In this document: one piece after another, positions 3,584 through 18,228 of the stretch
How the letters are laid out: each line of letters starts with the position of its first letter
Position numbering within the stretch: the stretch's first letter is position 1
Origin: a virus
Taxonomy: Duplodnaviria > Heunggongvirae > Uroviricota > Caudoviricetes
DNA length: 58,193 nt
Virus record (IMG/VR): IMGVR_UViG_3300045988_132327
Coordinates: 1-58,193 of that record
Direction: 5' to 3' (one strand)
Translations under genes and position numbers: made by a program
The notes under the pieces: generated by a model
The model's database searches: none
Told to the model about the DNA's origin: nothing
Seen by the model: only the letters and a program-made list of their open reading frames with translations

Positions 3584-4302
3584 GCAAGATTGACTATCAG
3601 GCGCTGCGTGAGATAGCAGAAAAGGCAACACCAGACGAATGGGTCGCATTTATTTCGACGGATACTGGTACTTATGCGGTGCACACGCCCGGTGATGAAC
3701 GATGTGAAGACGTTATCAAATGGACCGGCTTTGATGGACAGAAAAATGCAGAGAACAACGCTCGTTATGTTGCCGCGTTCAACCCAAAGGTTGCTTTGGC
3801 ACTACTGGATGAACGGGAAAGGAACCAGCAATACATCAAATCCCGTGACCAGGAGAACGAGGATATTGCGCTAACGGTTGGGAGGCTGCGCGTTGAGCTG
3901 GAAGGCAAAGACAGCAAAATAGCCAATCTTACCGCCGAACGCGATGCTCTTCGTGAAGGTGAGATGGGCGACGCTAGGCATAGCAACACACGGGCCGCAG
4001 CTGATATCTACTTCCAACTGGTCGAGGAGTGCGAAATTCCTGCTGGCGGATCTCTGGTCGAGTACGTTGACGATATGCGCGAGAAGCTGGAAGCCGCAGA
4101 GAAGCGCATTGCAGAGTTAGAAAGTGGTTCTCAGGCACAAAAGTTAGTTGAAGCAATCATTGTTGCGATAGAAAACGAACAGGAAAGGCTTTTTGATGAA
4201 GATTACCTAATGGATTCGAAAGAATGCATTGCCGTAATTCGTGAAGAAGTAAAGCGATGGAATGATTCCCGTGCCGCTGGCATTCGCATCAAAGGAGAGT
4301 GA
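3580..4302 (+). CDS. Ea22-like family protein, paralog 2
   Basis: 240 aa; shares N-terminal domain with 2849..3583, divergent C-terminus. Confidence 0.55.
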   Translation: MSKIDYQALREIAEKATPDEWVAFISTDTGTYAVHTPGDERCEDVIKWTGFDGQKNAENNARYVAAFNPKVALALLDERERNQQYIKSRDQENEDIALTVGRLRVELEGKDSKIANLTAERDALREGEMGDARHSNTRAAADIYFQLVEECEIPAGGSLVEYVDDMREKLEAAEKRIAELESGSQAQKLVEAIIVAIENEQERLFDEDYLMDSKECIAVIREEVKRWNDSRAAGIRIKGE

Positions 4303-7710: not shown

Positions 7711-7720
7711 TCACCATGCT

Positions 7721-7752
7721 AAAATCCCCTCAATTCACAGAGGGGATTTTTG
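7721..7752 (+). terminator. rho-independent terminator
   Basis: hairpin aaaatcccctc-loop-gaggggatttt followed by T-run, after 6940..7710. Confidence 0.6.
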
Positions 7753-11945: not shown

Positions 11946-12418
11946 TGTTTTTTAGCTCTCTGCGTGAAGGTGTAAACCCGACGTTTGATATGTGGAACGG
12001 TAGGAACAGGAATACAGGAACTTTCAATAACTCCTTGCTCCTCCAGCGATCGCACCGCCCGCAAGAACTGCGACGTGTCGCCGCCAAACTGGCGGGCATA
12101 GGTGCTGCCGTTATGAAGTATTTGAGCTATTACCCGAGCTTTTGTCTGGCTGTCACGATATGCGAATAGCCGCACGGCCTCTTCTGGCGCAATCGATAAC
12201 TGATAGCCTTTACCGGCACGGTGTCGAATGAATCCATGCGCCAGTAGGTTTTTGAGTTCGTTACGAGTGCGAACAGATCCGTAATCCAGGAAGTGTGGAT
12301 TGATAACGACTGGCTTAAACCATTCCGTAGGTGCTTTAGCTAATAGAGCTAACAGCTTCCCGGACAATCCTGGATAGGAAGACGGGTAACAATTCAGAGA
12401 TGGGTAATAAGTTTTCAC
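11942..12418 (-). CDS. hypothetical protein
   Basis: 158-aa ORF, start overlaps upstream gene by 4 nt. Confidence 0.4.
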   Translation of the reverse strand: MKTYYPSLNCYPSSYPGLSGKLLALLAKAPTEWFKPVVINPHFLDYGSVRTRNELKNLLAHGFIRHRAGKGYQLSIAPEEAVRLFAYRDSQTKARVIAQILHNGSTYARQFGGDTSQFLRAVRSLEEQGVIESSCIPVPTVPHIKRRVYTFTQRAKKQ

Positions 12419-12771
12419 CGACGCCCCCTTGCCGGATATCGACCTGCATTAGTATCCGGTGCAATAAAGCCGGTAGTGGGGCGAGTGAAAGCGAGATTAA
12501 TCTTCTCGACCATAGTGCGATAATTTTCCTGATAGTGGGCCAGGAGTTTTTCGGCGGCAATGATGGTTACTTTCCGGACGTAGCTTTCTGCTTCCTCCAG
12601 ATTTCGCCAGTTTTTTTCGAGGGTAAACACAGGGACGGCCTCAAGCCCGGTCATGATGCCGAATACAACGACAGCATGACTGTTCTTAACACCAGCGGCG
12701 AAGGTTACGGTGTAACCATCCACCGTGAAGCGTCTTGATTCCGTGATTTGACTCTGCAAAGCACCCTCCAA
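12415..12771 (-). CDS. hypothetical protein
   Basis: 118-aa ORF, first gene downstream of cre. Confidence 0.4.
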   Translation of the reverse strand: MEGALQSQITESRRFTVDGYTVTFAAGVKNSHAVVVFGIMTGLEAVPVFTLEKNWRNLEEAESYVRKVTIIAAEKLLAHYQENYRTMVEKINLAFTRPTTGFIAPDTNAGRYPARGRR

Positions 12772-12816
12772 AATAGGCGAGGGTACTTTACAGCAAAGAT
12801 ATCAATCTAAAAAGAT

Positions 12817-12831
12817 GTGTTAGAAATTTAA
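12817..12831 (+). promoter_or_regulatory. operator-like motif GTGTTAGAAATTTAA
   Basis: member of dispersed 15-bp motif family; between cre stop and 12415..12771. Confidence 0.45.
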
Positions 12832-12832
12832 T

Positions 12833-13861
12833 TTACGAATCCATCAAGCGGCTATTAGCCCCCACAGACACACCGCCACGGCGCAGATACCGCATAAGTG
12901 TTTCCGGTTTCTTCCAGGTTCCTTCCTGCATGATCTCCACCATAGACACCTGCTTTTCAGCCATATCGATAGCGGCCCCGACACGAGCACTATGCCCGGT
13001 CCACGTCCGGTATCTCCCTTTGTTTGGCGCGGCATCCCTTTTATTCAGCAACACCCAGGCGTCGCTGAATATTTTCTCCATTGCAGGTGCAGTAAGGGGA
13101 GTTGTCGTAATCCTGGCTTTATTGCTACGGTGTATCGGCGGGAACAGCACCGCGTCAGGATGTTCACGAAGCCCGGAAACATCCAGCCAGTCATTCAGCA
13201 CTGCGGTAGTGCGACGGGAAAGCACCTTATCAAGCCCGGCGGCGGTCGTTATTGTCTTCGTGTGTGAAATATGTAGCGTGACAGTGTCACCTGTTTGGTC
13301 CAGATCTCCTACACGAATACGCGAGATTTCCGACATACGCATCAGCGTATTGTATGCAACAAAGAGAAAAGCCCGGTTGCGCAGGTCCACCAGCCGTTCT
13401 GACTTGGACAACAGGACGTCGAGCAGTTTCAGATCGTCCCACCGCAGCGGTATAGCCTGGCCTGTTCGTTCGCCTTTTTCAGTTGCCGCTTCGCGCCGGA
13501 TGCGCCGCATAGCCAGAGAAACACTTTTATCATCCGAAAGTGGCGGAAGGCCACAATGCGAAAGCAGCATGTTCAGCATGGCGTAGTGCTTATCAATGGT
13601 GGTCGAAGCCAGATCGGCATCATGCAGCTGAAGAAAATACTCGCGGGCCATTTCTGGTGAGATCGGAAACCAGGCAAGCTGGCGAGCGTGACACCAGCGC
13701 GCCCAGGAATGAAACACCAACCGGAGGTCGCGCAGAGTATTCGGCGCATAAGCCCCCTGGTCATTCATGAACCGCATAAAGTTTTCTGCGGCTTCCTGGT
13801 ACTCTTTGCCAATGTTGCGCAGAAAACCACCGGAACTGCCAGAGATAATTAATTCACTCAT
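12833..13861 (-). CDS. cre: Cre-like tyrosine site-specific recombinase
   Basis: 342 aa; multiple blocks matching P1 Cre as recalled (VSLAMRRIRRE, RNRAFLFVAYNTLMRMSEISRIRVGDL, WTGHSARVGAA, catalytic Tyr in MRYL). Confidence 0.9.
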   Translation of the reverse strand: MSELIISGSSGGFLRNIGKEYQEAAENFMRFMNDQGAYAPNTLRDLRLVFHSWARWCHARQLAWFPISPEMAREYFLQLHDADLASTTIDKHYAMLNMLLSHCGLPPLSDDKSVSLAMRRIRREAATEKGERTGQAIPLRWDDLKLLDVLLSKSERLVDLRNRAFLFVAYNTLMRMSEISRIRVGDLDQTGDTVTLHISHTKTITTAAGLDKVLSRRTTAVLNDWLDVSGLREHPDAVLFPPIHRSNKARITTTPLTAPAMEKIFSDAWVLLNKRDAAPNKGRYRTWTGHSARVGAAIDMAEKQVSMVEIMQEGTWKKPETLMRYLRRGGVSVGANSRLMDS

Positions 13862-14012
13862 GAAACTATTTCACCTCTATATACAGATGACGCTACGCGA
13901 AAAATATAAAAATGACAGGGTAGCTATAAGTTAATTTTCAAAATACAAGCCTTTGATTCGAGGCACGTATTTTCAGTGATGTCAACACTGTTCATCTACA
14001 CATGATTATAGC

Positions 14013-14046
14013 CTAACTTTAAATAATGCCAATTATCTAAAGTTAG
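14013..14046. other. lox-like recombination site CTAACTTTAAATA-ATGCCAAT-TATCTAAAGTTAG (13-8-13)
   Basis: 13-bp inverted arms (12/13 complementary) around an asymmetric 8-bp spacer, same geometry as loxP; about 150 bp upstream of cre. Confidence 0.55.
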
Positions 14047-14053
14047 AAATTTA
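14039..14053 (+). promoter_or_regulatory. operator-like motif AAGTTAGAAATTTAG (weaker copy)
   Basis: overlaps right arm of lox-like site. Confidence 0.35.
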
Positions 14054-14217
14054 GGAATTTTTTTCCTTTCCGCGCAGATGGGCAATGCATTGCTGGTGTG
14101 GGCTTTAAGTTATGCCTGGCAGTTTTTAAGCAGAATTTTCTAAATTGGATGATAAAAAAATGCATCTTGATCCTTTACTCACCCTGTTATTCGGCATAGA
14201 TTTGTCATAGTAATTTT

Positions 14218-14232
14218 ATGTTAGAAAACTAA
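14218..14232 (+). promoter_or_regulatory. operator-like motif ATGTTAGAAAACTAA
   Basis: identical 15-mer also at 866..880 and 24853..24867 (reverse strand); 15 nt upstream of ORF 14247. Confidence 0.5.
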
Positions 14233-14246
14233 ATCGAGTAGGAATA

Positions 14247-15284
14247 ATGAGTAAGAAGTCGATCGAGAAAGAGTACAAACGGTTCCTGCAAACCGCTGAA
14301 CGGTGGAAAGAGCTGGTGGTCGCAAACTCTGTTTTCCATGATACCAGTTATTCCGGCGAGGAATTCCGCCATGTTGCACTAACACATGATCAGAATGTGC
14401 TAGAAGAAGCTGAAAAGTGCCTCACAGAATGGAAAGCCTTTGTTGACTTGTGCCGTAACGCTGACGGCAAAGCGTCTAACATTGTTGAGTCTGTATATTC
14501 TCCGATCCCATTCATTATCGAGGACACAAATCAAAGCACGCATATTGTTGTGCAAAGCGCGACCACCACCCGCTCATTTACGCGCGAAAATCTGCTCAAA
14601 AAATATGATGCAATTATAAAGAAAAGCCTGAAAAACAAGATATTTTCGCAGATTGTTGGTGCACTTGAAGAAGAGCGCCGTTTTTTCGCATCAGAACCTG
14701 AAGGGGAAGTTTACCGGGCGCGCAAAGATGGATACACAGATGTAGTGCTTACAACAAACATTGAAGGCAGCAATGCTCTGTCACGATTCAGGGTAGGCGC
14801 ACACGGAGCCTTAGTGTTCGCAAAACTTCCGAACACCACAGTGCCCGTTGTTAATAATGTCGGCGAACGTCGCAGCATTACTATTTATTCTGGGGTTGAG
14901 TCGATACCTTGCGGCCTGCTTGGTGACTTTAGTCTCTATCGCGTTCGCGATCTGGAGAAACACCAACCAAGCTATGTTGCGAAGTCATACATCTTGCGAA
15001 ACATCGACATCCGCAATGAGAGCTTAAAGAACAAATCAGCCAAAATGCTTGAGGAAGCCGATCCGGCTATTCGCCATATCATTGAGCGTAAAATACAGAC
15101 AGCACGCGAAGCGATGGCGAGACTGAATAAAATGGATCTGGAGTTGTTAGACGTAATGATGACATCCGGAGATGACCTGACAGGCATAAAACTGACAGAC
15201 GCGCGGAAAAGATACGGTAAAACCATAGAAGAACGTTACGGGTTCACTTTCTCCCAAACACAGCACGCCGCTAAACTCTGGTAA
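14247..15284 (+). CDS. hypothetical protein; positional candidate for C1-like immunity repressor
   Basis: 345 aa; convergent with pacB and divergent from cre across an operator-rich spacer; no recognisable domain. Confidence 0.45.
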   Translation: MSKKSIEKEYKRFLQTAERWKELVVANSVFHDTSYSGEEFRHVALTHDQNVLEEAEKCLTEWKAFVDLCRNADGKASNIVESVYSPIPFIIEDTNQSTHIVVQSATTTRSFTRENLLKKYDAIIKKSLKNKIFSQIVGALEEERRFFASEPEGEVYRARKDGYTDVVLTTNIEGSNALSRFRVGAHGALVFAKLPNTTVPVVNNVGERRSITIYSGVESIPCGLLGDFSLYRVRDLEKHQPSYVAKSYILRNIDIRNESLKNKSAKMLEEADPAIRHIIERKIQTAREAMARLNKMDLELLDVMMTSGDDLTGIKLTDARKRYGKTIEERYGFTFSQTQHAAKLW

Positions 15285-15288
15285 TCAC

Positions 15289-15313
15289 AAGCCCCGCATT
15301 GCCGGGGCTTTAT
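15289..15313 (+). terminator. hairpin terminator
   Basis: gccccg-cattgc-cggggc then TTTAT, just after 14247..15284. Confidence 0.4.
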
Positions 15314-15355
15314 CCGGTGCGCCGTAAAACCCCGTCCTTCAGGGCGTGGAGGATG

Positions 15356-16864
15356 TCAAATATCCAGATCTGGCATTTCTACATCTGCAAGAACCTGATC
15401 GCGGAAGGTAGCCATTTCAGCGCCGATATCTTCATTAGCAGGAACATAGTCCACCAGCATTGTAAAGCAGTAGGTATCCCATCGGTCAGGTGATTTGATG
15501 TTCAGCTTTTGCCGCATGTGCTCCTTGCGCATCATCGCCATCTTCCCTTCTTCATTAAGTAAAAAGGGGATTTTTGACGCTTGCTCTGCCGTTTTAGGGT
15601 CGCTGTCTATTCGCATACGACCTGACTTTATGGCATCGCGAGCCATAATATTTGCGTAGGCACGCTGGTTAACAAAACGCTCCTTGTCTTTGTTCGAAAA
15701 CATGGGTTTCCCCCACCGAATCCGTACCGGATTAGCCCCACGGCGCACCAGCTGCGCACAGGTATCTGAACCAAAACCGTCTGCGTCAACCGCGATTGTA
15801 ATATTCGGGTATTTATCCGGCGTGCATTCGTTGTATATAAAGTCAGCAAAAGCCAGCGGGTCCATAGTCCCTGGCATTTCCATTACCTTAAAGTTAACAA
15901 CACGCCGCTTTTCCCGGTGACCAGACACTTTACAGATATTAAGAACTGACTTGTCTCGCCCGTTACCAACGTCAGCAGTAGCCACCCATCCCCAGTTTTT
16001 CTCCAACAACACCTTGCGCCGCGCAGCGCGATCGCATTCATCACGACCAAGCAAATAGCCGTTAATCTCCCGAGGAAACTGACCAAGAACCTTGACCATG
16101 TACTCAATAGAATCGCGCCCGCCATATTCCAGGAGTTTCTGCCTGATGAATTGTGGTGTGACGAACGGTGATTCTTCTGAGTTAAGAACAATTGCTGTCC
16201 AGATCCCTTTCGGGTTGTCTGGGGTTTTAGCTTGAGAATGGTGCGAATCGTAGAAATAACCACTTGGCCTTGTTGGCTGGGATAGCATCAACATTCGGTT
16301 ATCTTCTTCAGTCAGAGCGCCAGTCATTACGCCGATCGCTTTATCAGATATACCTGATGCTTCATCCAGAATTAGAAGCAAATGTGCCGCGTGCTCCCCC
16401 GCCAGTGCTTCTTCGTTACCGAGTCGATAACCTTTGCAGAGAACTTCCCAGATCCCTTTGCGGGAACGTTCATAAAACATGGTGTCAGACAGGACAAAAT
16501 AGGTCTGTAACCACCCGTGACGCTTAACTGCATTCGCCCAATACTGTTTAACGTATTTGAATACGCCTGTTTTAACCTGGCCTATCTTGTTAGCAACAAT
16601 GATGACACGGGCATCGGGGAACAGAATCAAATAAATCAGCAACAACATAGCCGTTAACGACGATTTCCCTGTACCGTGACCAGAAGTAACAGTGGTTCTG
16701 CTCCCTTTTTGCTGTACGGACTGGATAATCTCCTGCTGCTGGTGGGAGGGAAACATCCCGAAAATATCAACAACAGCCTGGGTAAAGTTGTAGCGGTATT
16801 TGATTACCATATCGCGCCAGCGTGGATCGCTGGTGACGCATTTAATCTTGCGCCCACCAGCCAT
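15356..16864 (-). CDS. pacB: terminase large subunit, PacB-like
   Basis: 502 aa; Walker A GHGTGKSS; start overlaps pacA stop. Confidence 0.8.
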   Translation of the reverse strand: MAGGRKIKCVTSDPRWRDMVIKYRYNFTQAVVDIFGMFPSHQQQEIIQSVQQKGSRTTVTSGHGTGKSSLTAMLLLIYLILFPDARVIIVANKIGQVKTGVFKYVKQYWANAVKRHGWLQTYFVLSDTMFYERSRKGIWEVLCKGYRLGNEEALAGEHAAHLLLILDEASGISDKAIGVMTGALTEEDNRMLMLSQPTRPSGYFYDSHHSQAKTPDNPKGIWTAIVLNSEESPFVTPQFIRQKLLEYGGRDSIEYMVKVLGQFPREINGYLLGRDECDRAARRKVLLEKNWGWVATADVGNGRDKSVLNICKVSGHREKRRVVNFKVMEMPGTMDPLAFADFIYNECTPDKYPNITIAVDADGFGSDTCAQLVRRGANPVRIRWGKPMFSNKDKERFVNQRAYANIMARDAIKSGRMRIDSDPKTAEQASKIPFLLNEEGKMAMMRKEHMRQKLNIKSPDRWDTYCFTMLVDYVPANEDIGAEMATFRDQVLADVEMPDLDI

Positions 16865-18228
16865 TAGTCGTCCTCCGGCGGTTCTATCGCGATATCATCA
16901 TCTCCGGCGTCATATCCTGCGTCTGATGCATCATAATCACCGTAAATTTCAGCCGTAGCCGAAGGGTCAATATCCAACTCTTCGTCGTTGGCCTCGAATT
17001 CCCCAGCCTTACGCTCGCCATTGTGGTCGTAATCTCCGCACCCCAGATCTTCAACAATGGTTGCCACATCCGCCCGGCGCTCTGCCAGCCATTGCGGATG
17101 GTTAGCCTGAAGCGATGCAAACTCCTTCGCTTCTTTGTCCAGCTGTTCATCATCAACATCATTGATGTCAGAAACTGGAGGCTCGAGAAGAGTGATAGCT
17201 TTCGCCGCGCGCGCCGCGAGGATAGCCGGGACACTGACACCCTGACGCTCGATGTATTCAGCAACACCGATATCATCCAGCTCCTCGCGCTCACGCATAC
17301 GTATAGCGGCGGCGATAACTCTGGCTGCGCGTGCGTCAGCGCCAATGCGATATTCAATCTCTTTGCCACGCTGTTCGGCCTGTAGGCGTGCTAATTCGAG
17401 TTTTTCTCTGGCCTCGGCCTCTCTGAATGCTTGCTGGCGAGCACCCTGACGAAGTTTTTCATCACCCTGTCGCAGCTTTTGTTCGGACTGATATATCGCT
17501 GCCAACCTACTGATAAAATCGTTCATGTAGTAGGCCGCGTCACTGATTAGACCGAGCAGTCGCTGCCCAGGGTGCATTCCTTCTGGCTGCTGATCACCCA
17601 GGGCGTCTATCTCCGCCTGTAGGCGTTCGGCCTCCTGATCAACAATGCTTTGGTACTGAAGTGCGCGTTCTTGCGCCATTTGAATTGCTAACCGCAGGTG
17701 CTCTTCTGCGCCGTTCTTCATCATGTCGCGAGCCACACTCGTAGTGGGCAACGTGGCACGCTGCACAGCACCGCCAGGGATCATTGCTGAAGATCCCTCG
17801 GTTTTTGAAGCGCATTTATCTTCGGCGGGGATCATTTTCGCCATTTTTTCGCGCAATGATCTCCTGACAGATTCTTTTATCTCATTGTTATTATTGGTGT
17901 TATTGTCATGATCCGAAGTTTTCTTTCTTGGCATACTTCGGAAAGAACCTGCACCCTGCGAATTGTCAATTTCTGTAAATTTTGTTTTTTCTGCACCCTC
18001 TTCCAGCTTTTTTGTTGCTCTTCCCGCCCGTTTTTTTTCAGGTGATTTGGTGCTTTTTTTTGTTGTCTTTACCTGCGACCGCACCTCATTTTTTTTCATA
18101 TTGAGATGCTTTCTGGCTGTATTGAAGCTAAGGCCATGCTCCTCACAGTATTCCTTTACAGTGATCCCTTTTTCTTCACGCAACGCTATAAAGCGGGCGC
18201 GGTGCTCCTCCCAATTAACCAGACTCAT
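16864..18228 (-). CDS. pacA: terminase small subunit, PacA-like
   Basis: 454 aa; N-terminal HTH-like region; directly upstream of and overlapping pacB. Confidence 0.7.
   Translation of the reverse strand: MSLVNWEEHRARFIALREEKGITVKEYCEEHGLSFNTARKHLNMKKNEVRSQVKTTKKSTKSPEKKRAGRATKKLEEGAEKTKFTEIDNSQGAGSFRSMPRKKTSDHDNNTNNNNEIKESVRRSLREKMAKMIPAEDKCASKTEGSSAMIPGGAVQRATLPTTSVARDMMKNGAEEHLRLAIQMAQERALQYQSIVDQEAERLQAEIDALGDQQPEGMHPGQRLLGLISDAAYYMNDFISRLAAIYQSEQKLRQGDEKLRQGARQQAFREAEAREKLELARLQAEQRGKEIEYRIGADARAARVIAAAIRMREREELDDIGVAEYIERQGVSVPAILAARAAKAITLLEPPVSDINDVDDEQLDKEAKEFASLQANHPQWLAERRADVATIVEDLGCGDYDHNGERKAGEFEANDEELDIDPSATAEIYGDYDASDAGYDAGDDDIAIEPPEDD
17779..17913. other. candidate pac site (GATC cluster within pacA)
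   Basis: five GATC in 135 bp, four in TGATC context; P1 pac lies within pacA and is made of TGATCA/G hexamers (recalled). Confidence 0.4.

Follow-up and report, generated by a model that had tools for sequence, protein, structure and literature searches.

The near-palindromic sequence at positions 14013–14046 of the 58,193-nt stretch of DNA analysed here (the window) is very probably the rox site of a D6-like phage-plasmid, with the neighbouring gene encoding its recombinase Dre and a single C in one arm representing a tolerated polymorphism. The pair is already known and is not a new system; its recovery from the window is a rediscovery. Dre/rox of phage D6 was reportedly described by Sauer and McDermott in 2004 in Nucleic Acids Res 32:6086 and, as a relative of Cre/loxP, has become the standard orthogonal partner of that system, widely used in mouse genetics. 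The initial annotation of this DNA, made from the letters alone, had proposed a Cre/lox-type pair of altered specificity that would be of interest as an orthogonal recombinase system. The altered specificity is borne out, the site and the enzyme being nearly identical to a canonical pair (31 of 32 bp for rox and 340 of 342 residues for Dre) that does not cross-react with Cre/loxP in published tests. The interest is justified insofar as the pair is heterospecific, but such a pair has been available since 2004 and is a standard tool. A reading of sequence only was able to pick out a heterospecific Cre-type pair correctly.

Geometry of the palindrome

Read as 13-8-13, the site is CTAACTTTAAATA-ATGCCAAT-TATCTAAAGTTAG, a near-perfect palindrome whose arms are complementary at 12 of 13 positions, exactly as first written down. 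The left, dre-proximal arm CTAACTTTAAATA occupies 14013–14025 on the plus strand and is identical to the corresponding arm of D6 in this reading. The 8-bp centre ATGCCAAT (14026–14033, plus strand) is equivalent to the loxP spacer and comprises positions 1–8 of Chuang et al. The right, c1-proximal arm (14034–14046) reads CTAACTTTAGATA on the minus strand and bears the sole departure from rox. The symmetry extends inward, which allows the site to be parsed alternatively as 15-4-15, with 14 of 15 positions complementary, or as 14-4-14 (13 of 14, 14014–14045), and leaves within ATGCCAAT a strictly asymmetric core of GCCA at 14028–14031.

In published descriptions, rox consists of 14-bp repeats separated by a 4-bp spacer (PMC4777119). 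Since rox sites mutated at the bases corresponding to loxP spacer positions 2 and 7 are no longer compatible with the wild-type site, a functional crossover region of approximately 8 bp has been suggested, with cleavage at positions equivalent to those in loxP (PMC4777119). The 13-8-13 parse is the register used in that study to number rox positions 1–8 and not the formal description of rox. The claim that the site has the exact geometry of loxP is a matter of the parsing chosen, rox being formally 14-4-14.

Chance does not explain the palindrome at 14013–14046. In 200 dinucleotide-preserving shuffles of the window, the expected number of 13-8-13 sites with at least 12 of 13 complementary positions was 0.075, and that of 15-4-15 sites with at least 14 of 15 was 0.01. 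Within the 58-kb window, which belongs to a replicon of roughly 90 kb, neither a second copy of the site within three mismatches nor an extra half-site within two mismatches was detected, and a search against Rfam returned zero matches over 12000–16000. The only other 13-8-13 match, at 7719–7752 (AAAATCCCCTC...GAGGGGATTTT, then a T-run), is a GC-rich hairpin that looks like an intrinsic terminator and was rejected as a candidate.

Targets of Cre-type recombinases have been sought by Jelicic et al. (2023) as palindromic half-sites of 11–15 bp (figure legend) or 13–15 bp (main text) with no more than two asymmetries, separated by an 8-bp spacer and located less than 1 kb from a recombinase gene (PMC10250229). 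The window site falls within this definition, having a 13-8-13 organization with one asymmetry and lying 152 bp upstream of the recombinase start codon at 13861, in good agreement with the 'about 150 bp' given in the initial annotation.

Dre, rox and their relatives

In its 32-bp form (14014–14045, unstranded), the window site reads TAACTTTAAATAAT GCCA ATTATCTAAAGTTA and is referred to below as the natural allele rox-C. Aligned with the published rox of D6, TAACTTTAAATAATGCCAATTATTTAAAGTTA, the window sequence TAACTTTAAATAATGCCAATTATCTAAAGTTA is identical at 31 of 32 positions, with a T→C change at 14037 on the plus strand. A megablast search with 12700–14400 matched Escherichia phage D6, represented by two sequence entries (three database records), in which the matched features are annotated as 'dre: tyrosine recombinase', 'c1' and 'region of crossover (rox) site for Dre recombinase'. 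The rox feature is annotated in both AY753669 and MF356679.

The gene beside the site, dre (12833–13861, minus strand), encodes a 342-aa tyrosine recombinase that is identical to D6 Dre (AAV84949) at 340 of 342 residues, the differences being R153K and T278A. With 132 identities over 323 aligned columns (about 41%), the window enzyme is a homologue of Cre and not Cre itself. It matches the Pfam family Phage_integrase (4.6e-17), and its nearest solved structures are those of Cre (E = 5.5e-69); among the solved structures deposited, only Cre and its variants were found, and none of Dre. Alignment to Cre showed that the catalytic residues R175, K202, H290, R293, W316 and Y325 are all kept. In addition, Cre positions 43, 259 and 263 are occupied by R44, P259 and K263, the residues that discriminate rox from loxP; R, P and K introduced there switch Cre from loxP to rox (PMC4957104; PMC7438526). 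Canonical Dre of phage D6 recognises the 32-bp rox, and recombination was observed neither for Dre on loxP nor for Cre on rox (PMC3082901; PMC7438526).

The order of genes, pacA-pacB-c1-rox-dre, is also that of D6. The c1 gene (14247–15284, plus strand) encodes a P1-C1-like repressor according to the D6 annotation; its product is 90% identical to D6 C1 and has no Pfam match. Beyond it lie pacB (15356–16864, minus strand), encoding the large terminase subunit according to both the D6 annotation and Pfam, and pacA (16864–18228, minus strand), encoding the small subunit according to the D6 annotation. Overall, the window represents a mosaic D6-like phage-plasmid of Enterobacteriaceae, and its best plasmid matches are 94.6% identical over 87% of the first 25 kb. 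The whole left arm, the ATGCCAAT centre and the distance between site and gene are shared with D6 as well. The window differs from D6 in the base that flanks the right arm, which is G instead of T and lengthens the palindrome, in an additional operator-like motif that abuts the right arm, and in the allele on the c1 side, where the intergenic DNA is about 77% and c1 DNA 84% identical.

With Cre/loxP of P1, the window pair shares the fold and catalytic residues of the enzyme, the inverted arms around an asymmetric centre, a site that has the recombinase gene on one side and the c1/pac region on the other, and presumed functions in resolving dimers and cyclising DNA. Nevertheless, the site matches loxP (ATAACTTCGTATA-ATGTATGC-TATACGAAGTTAT) at only 9 of 13 positions in each arm, just as the initial annotation had counted, and at 21 of 34 overall, and its strict symmetry is 14-4-14 as opposed to the 13-8-13 of loxP. 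Only 201 bp separate rox from c1 in the window, whereas in P1 additional genes lie between loxP and c1. A canonical loxP elsewhere in the replicon had been named as a possible competing target for the enzyme; none was found within three arm mismatches anywhere in the 58-kb window. All of the testable defining features of Dre/rox are present at the window site, and those of Cre/loxP are absent from it.

By homology with Cre/loxP, one Dre monomer would bind each inverted arm, and two rox sites would be synapsed in a Dre tetramer. Tyr325 would then cleave the DNA and the strands would be exchanged across the ATGCCAAT centre via a Holliday intermediate, with the asymmetric GCCA core setting the direction of the site. 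By analogy with P1, the biological roles of Dre/rox are most likely the resolution of plasmid dimers, which would ensure faithful partition of the low-copy prophage, and the circularisation of terminally redundant DNA after infection. In a study of a D6-like Salmonella plasmid, the role in multimer resolution was assigned by annotation only (PMC6799933).

A further relative, Panto/pox of Pantoea sp. aB, has arms nearly identical to those of rox, and it was shown that Dre recombines pox and Panto recombines rox (Karimova et al., 2016, PMC4957104). The recombinase is approximately 55% identical to window Dre. The spacer is different too, and this difference prevents recombination between rox and pox (PMC4957104). 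Pantoea-type, pox-like sites next to a recombinase 55% identical to Dre were encountered in five loci (L007, L014, L017, L021 and L026). The order recombinase-site-c1 is the same as in the window in four of these five, namely those whose contig reaches far enough. Like rox-C, the Pantoea-type sites depart naturally from perfect symmetry by one base, and the half-site position is the same, except that the base concerned belongs to the arm nearer the recombinase gene and is T instead of G.

Several other sites came to light in the same comparisons. A Rosenbergiella contig (L005) encodes a homologue 42% identical to Dre beside TAACTTTATATAATCCTTATTATGTAAAGTTA, apparently an uncharacterised pair. 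A natural rox with the centre CCCC instead of GCCA lies next to a Dre homologue at 12404–12435 of L029, and one with the centre GCTA lies at 3705–3736 of L015, next to a recombinase 70% identical to window Dre; judged by their spacers, these two may be natural heterotypic variants of rox. Pattern matches in Lactobacillus and Clostridia genomes had no Dre homologue nearby and were discarded as chance AT-rich palindromes.

The rox-C allele and the mosaic junction

The change at 14037 corresponds to A→G on the arm strand and falls at right half-site position 8' in the Rec-seq numbering, which runs from the inside out with positions 1–4 for the half spacer and 5–17 for the arm. Soni et al. number the same base pair 12/64; it belongs to the three in each arm by which rox and loxP differ. 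Position 8/8' is read weakly by Dre. Enrichment for the canonical base was 1.93 at position 8 and 1.86 at 8', values that express preference for the canonical base only and give no penalty specific to G, compared with 3.06, 2.66 and 2.24 at positions 6, 7 and 12, respectively (PMC6486577 source data). Moreover, Dre recombines pox and lox8, with two mismatches per half-site, and lox11, with four (PMC10250229; PMC4957104). Some loss of Dre affinity at the right arm of rox-C is possible, since 14037 belongs to the triplet that discriminates rox from loxP and since modelling has placed P259 of Dre against thymine methyls in the region of the variant base (PMC7438526).

The allele is widespread. 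When IMG/VR was scanned with a pattern open at the variant position and in the spacer, 31 contigs with a D6-type site were recovered, 8 of which carry the C allele; in both the genome and the viral scans all arm bases except the variant position were fixed, and the counts are therefore not a measure of how variable that position is relative to others. In PLSDB, the dre-c1 intergenic region has matches in 116 plasmids, with an identity to the window of 95% or more in 27 and of about 85% (the D6 type) in 83. A similar pattern was found in complete E. coli genomes, where matches to the dre-c1 region were always on plasmids. The C allele is carried by all six complete window-type plasmids that were sampled, which originate from E. 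coli, Salmonella and Shigella and were isolated across three continents (Taiwan, Ireland, Hong Kong, Ghana, UK and France). Both of the D6-type plasmids sampled (2/2) have rox-T. The exact Dre protein of D6 is encoded beside rox-C in at least four loci (L018, L041, L043 and L044).

These data bear on the idea of a joint evolution of enzyme and site, departing from canonical Dre/rox and giving a new orthogonal pair, in which an enzyme with K153 and A278 prefers the C-bearing arm. Such a process might be suspected from the location of the variant base within the rox/lox specificity triplet and from the two substitutions in window Dre, A278 being in the J-K loop region. It is nonetheless very improbable. 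The recurrence of rox-C next to exact canonical Dre argues against a co-evolved specificity; of the two substitutions, K153 is confined to this window and A278 is also seen beside canonical rox-T, in L030. Only one arm of two is changed, so that a homotetramer must still bind the canonical arm, and the specificity residues R44, P259 and K263 have not changed. A tolerated natural polymorphism of the c1-proximal arm, and not a new specificity, is the best reading of the T→C change at 14037. We infer from these comparisons that Dre is probably active on rox-C.

The single mismatch in an otherwise perfect palindrome could also be taken as a sign that rox is decaying and non-functional, with multimers being resolved by other means such as host Xer or RecA. 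There is little to recommend this explanation, because every sampled member of a widespread lineage with intact dre has the same single change and no further decay, and because the position is weakly specified and more divergent sites are tolerated by Dre (PMC6486577; PMC10250229). Furthermore, one or two asymmetries between the arms are frequent in natural Cre-type sites, for instance SloxP and native pox, and up to two are permitted in the published search (PMC10250229). A tolerated polymorphism remains the preferred reading of rox-C, and a common natural allele that is asymmetric at 8' and coexists with canonical Dre provides natural evidence on the tolerance of Dre for its target, which is relevant to the prediction of pseudo-rox off-targets.

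In a full-text search of the literature, canonical rox was matched in three papers and the exact rox-C sequence in none. The 'point mutation' mentioned for E. coli DEC12A (Karimova et al., PMC4957104) was considered as a possible earlier report of the allele and dismissed, as it concerns the Dre protein (99.7% identity) and not the site.

The site also coincides with a sharp change in relatedness to D6. Comparison of 12600–16000 with MF356679, taking 14030 as the boundary, revealed 96–100% identity in each of the 100-bp bins on the dre side, left of the rox centre, and 54% in the first bin to the right, followed by 75–85% through c1. The proteins follow the same division, C1 being 90% and Dre 99.4% identical to those of D6. 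Within the otherwise divergent c1 region, one bin (14230–14329) shows 100% identity to D6. It includes a portion of an operator-like motif and the ribosome-binding site, and takes in the first 83 nt, or about 28 codons, of c1.

Clustering of 22 loci at 92% identity indicated that dre-side and c1-side types have been reassorted. Dre-side type 0 occurs with c1-side types 0 and 1, and c1-side type 1 occurs with dre-side types 0 and 1, the flanking sequence changing immediately outside the 32-bp rox. In 6 of 7 loci, the C allele accompanies c1-side type 1, which is the association expected if exchange takes place in the spacer and each arm keeps its own flank. Reassorted flanks are likewise what would be expected if natural crossover takes place at rox, the C allele included. 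The same reassortment could arise by homologous exchange inside the conserved 32 bp. The pattern is consistent with rox serving as a natural crossover point in D6-like elements, and so sharp a junction at the site suggests that site-specific recombination shapes the exchange of modules among phage-plasmids.

Regulatory motifs overlapping rox

A sigma-70-like promoter facing dre is predicted at 14005–14032 on the minus strand, with a match to the consensus at 11 of 12 positions. Its −35 element TTGGCA (14032–14027) spans the rox spacer and is followed, after 16 nt, by the −10 element TATAAT (14010–14005) in the left flank of rox. It was the sole promoter of this kind found in 13800–14300, where shuffled sequences gave an expectation of 1.8. 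Among 34 D6-like loci, the −10 element is invariant (34/34) and the −35 element is kept in 32, and these include loci in which dre DNA is only 70–80% identical to the window. The conservation of a promoter embedded in rox suggests that Dre may repress its own gene by occupying the site. If this predicted autoregulation is true, it would matter for the placing of rox in bacterial constructs.

The right arm overlaps an operator-like motif, as the initial annotation had noticed. The 12-nt sequence GTTAGAAAWYTA is present in 10 copies in the window against 0 expected, at 867, 12819, 14042, 14220, 23449, 23605, 24854, 31394, 35800 and 37004, and is a candidate C1 operator of D6-like phages. The copy at 14042–14053 (plus strand) begins within the final 4 bp of the right arm, and D6 has no counterpart of it there. 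A second copy (14220–14231, plus strand), located upstream of c1 at 15 nt from its start codon, is found in D6 as well. It was considered whether the C at 14037 helps to build the motif, but nothing supports this, as 3 nt separate the base from the conserved block of 14 nt and C is found at that position in none of the other copies.

With a promoter across the site, conserved as described above, and an operator-like motif overlapping its right arm, it may be asked whether the palindrome is primarily a promoter/operator for the divergent dre and c1 genes, with recombination secondary or absent. This is extremely unlikely, since experiments have established canonical rox as a minimal recombination target and since a regulatory reading is compatible with recombination and does not replace it; the promoter, moreover, is a consensus match alone in a region where the number found did not exceed that in shuffled sequence. 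For a site that is in the first place a recombination target, a more elaborate regulatory function can be entertained only tentatively. In such a scheme, rox would act as a regulatory hub at which Dre represses dre, and the candidate C1 operator at the right arm, particular to the lineage of the window, would couple occupancy by the repressor to recombination or to the expression of dre and c1. A related possibility, put forward with the same reserve, is that rox serves as a natural crossover point for the swapping of c1-pac and dre-side modules.

The regulatory and packaging signals of the element were compared with those of P1. The C1 operator consensus of P1 is ATTGCTCTAATAAATTT, from which the operator-like motif differs, and no match to it within three mismatches is present in the window. 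Similarly, pacA (16864–18228) contains no cluster of the P1-style hexamer TGATCA/G, only two isolated copies, and for this reason the pac site of the element is probably unlike that of P1. A one-mismatch copy of the operator-like motif, ATTAGAAAATTA, is located at approximately 18697, near the region expected from comparison with D6 to lie upstream of the lpa homologue, and it is found in D6 as well.
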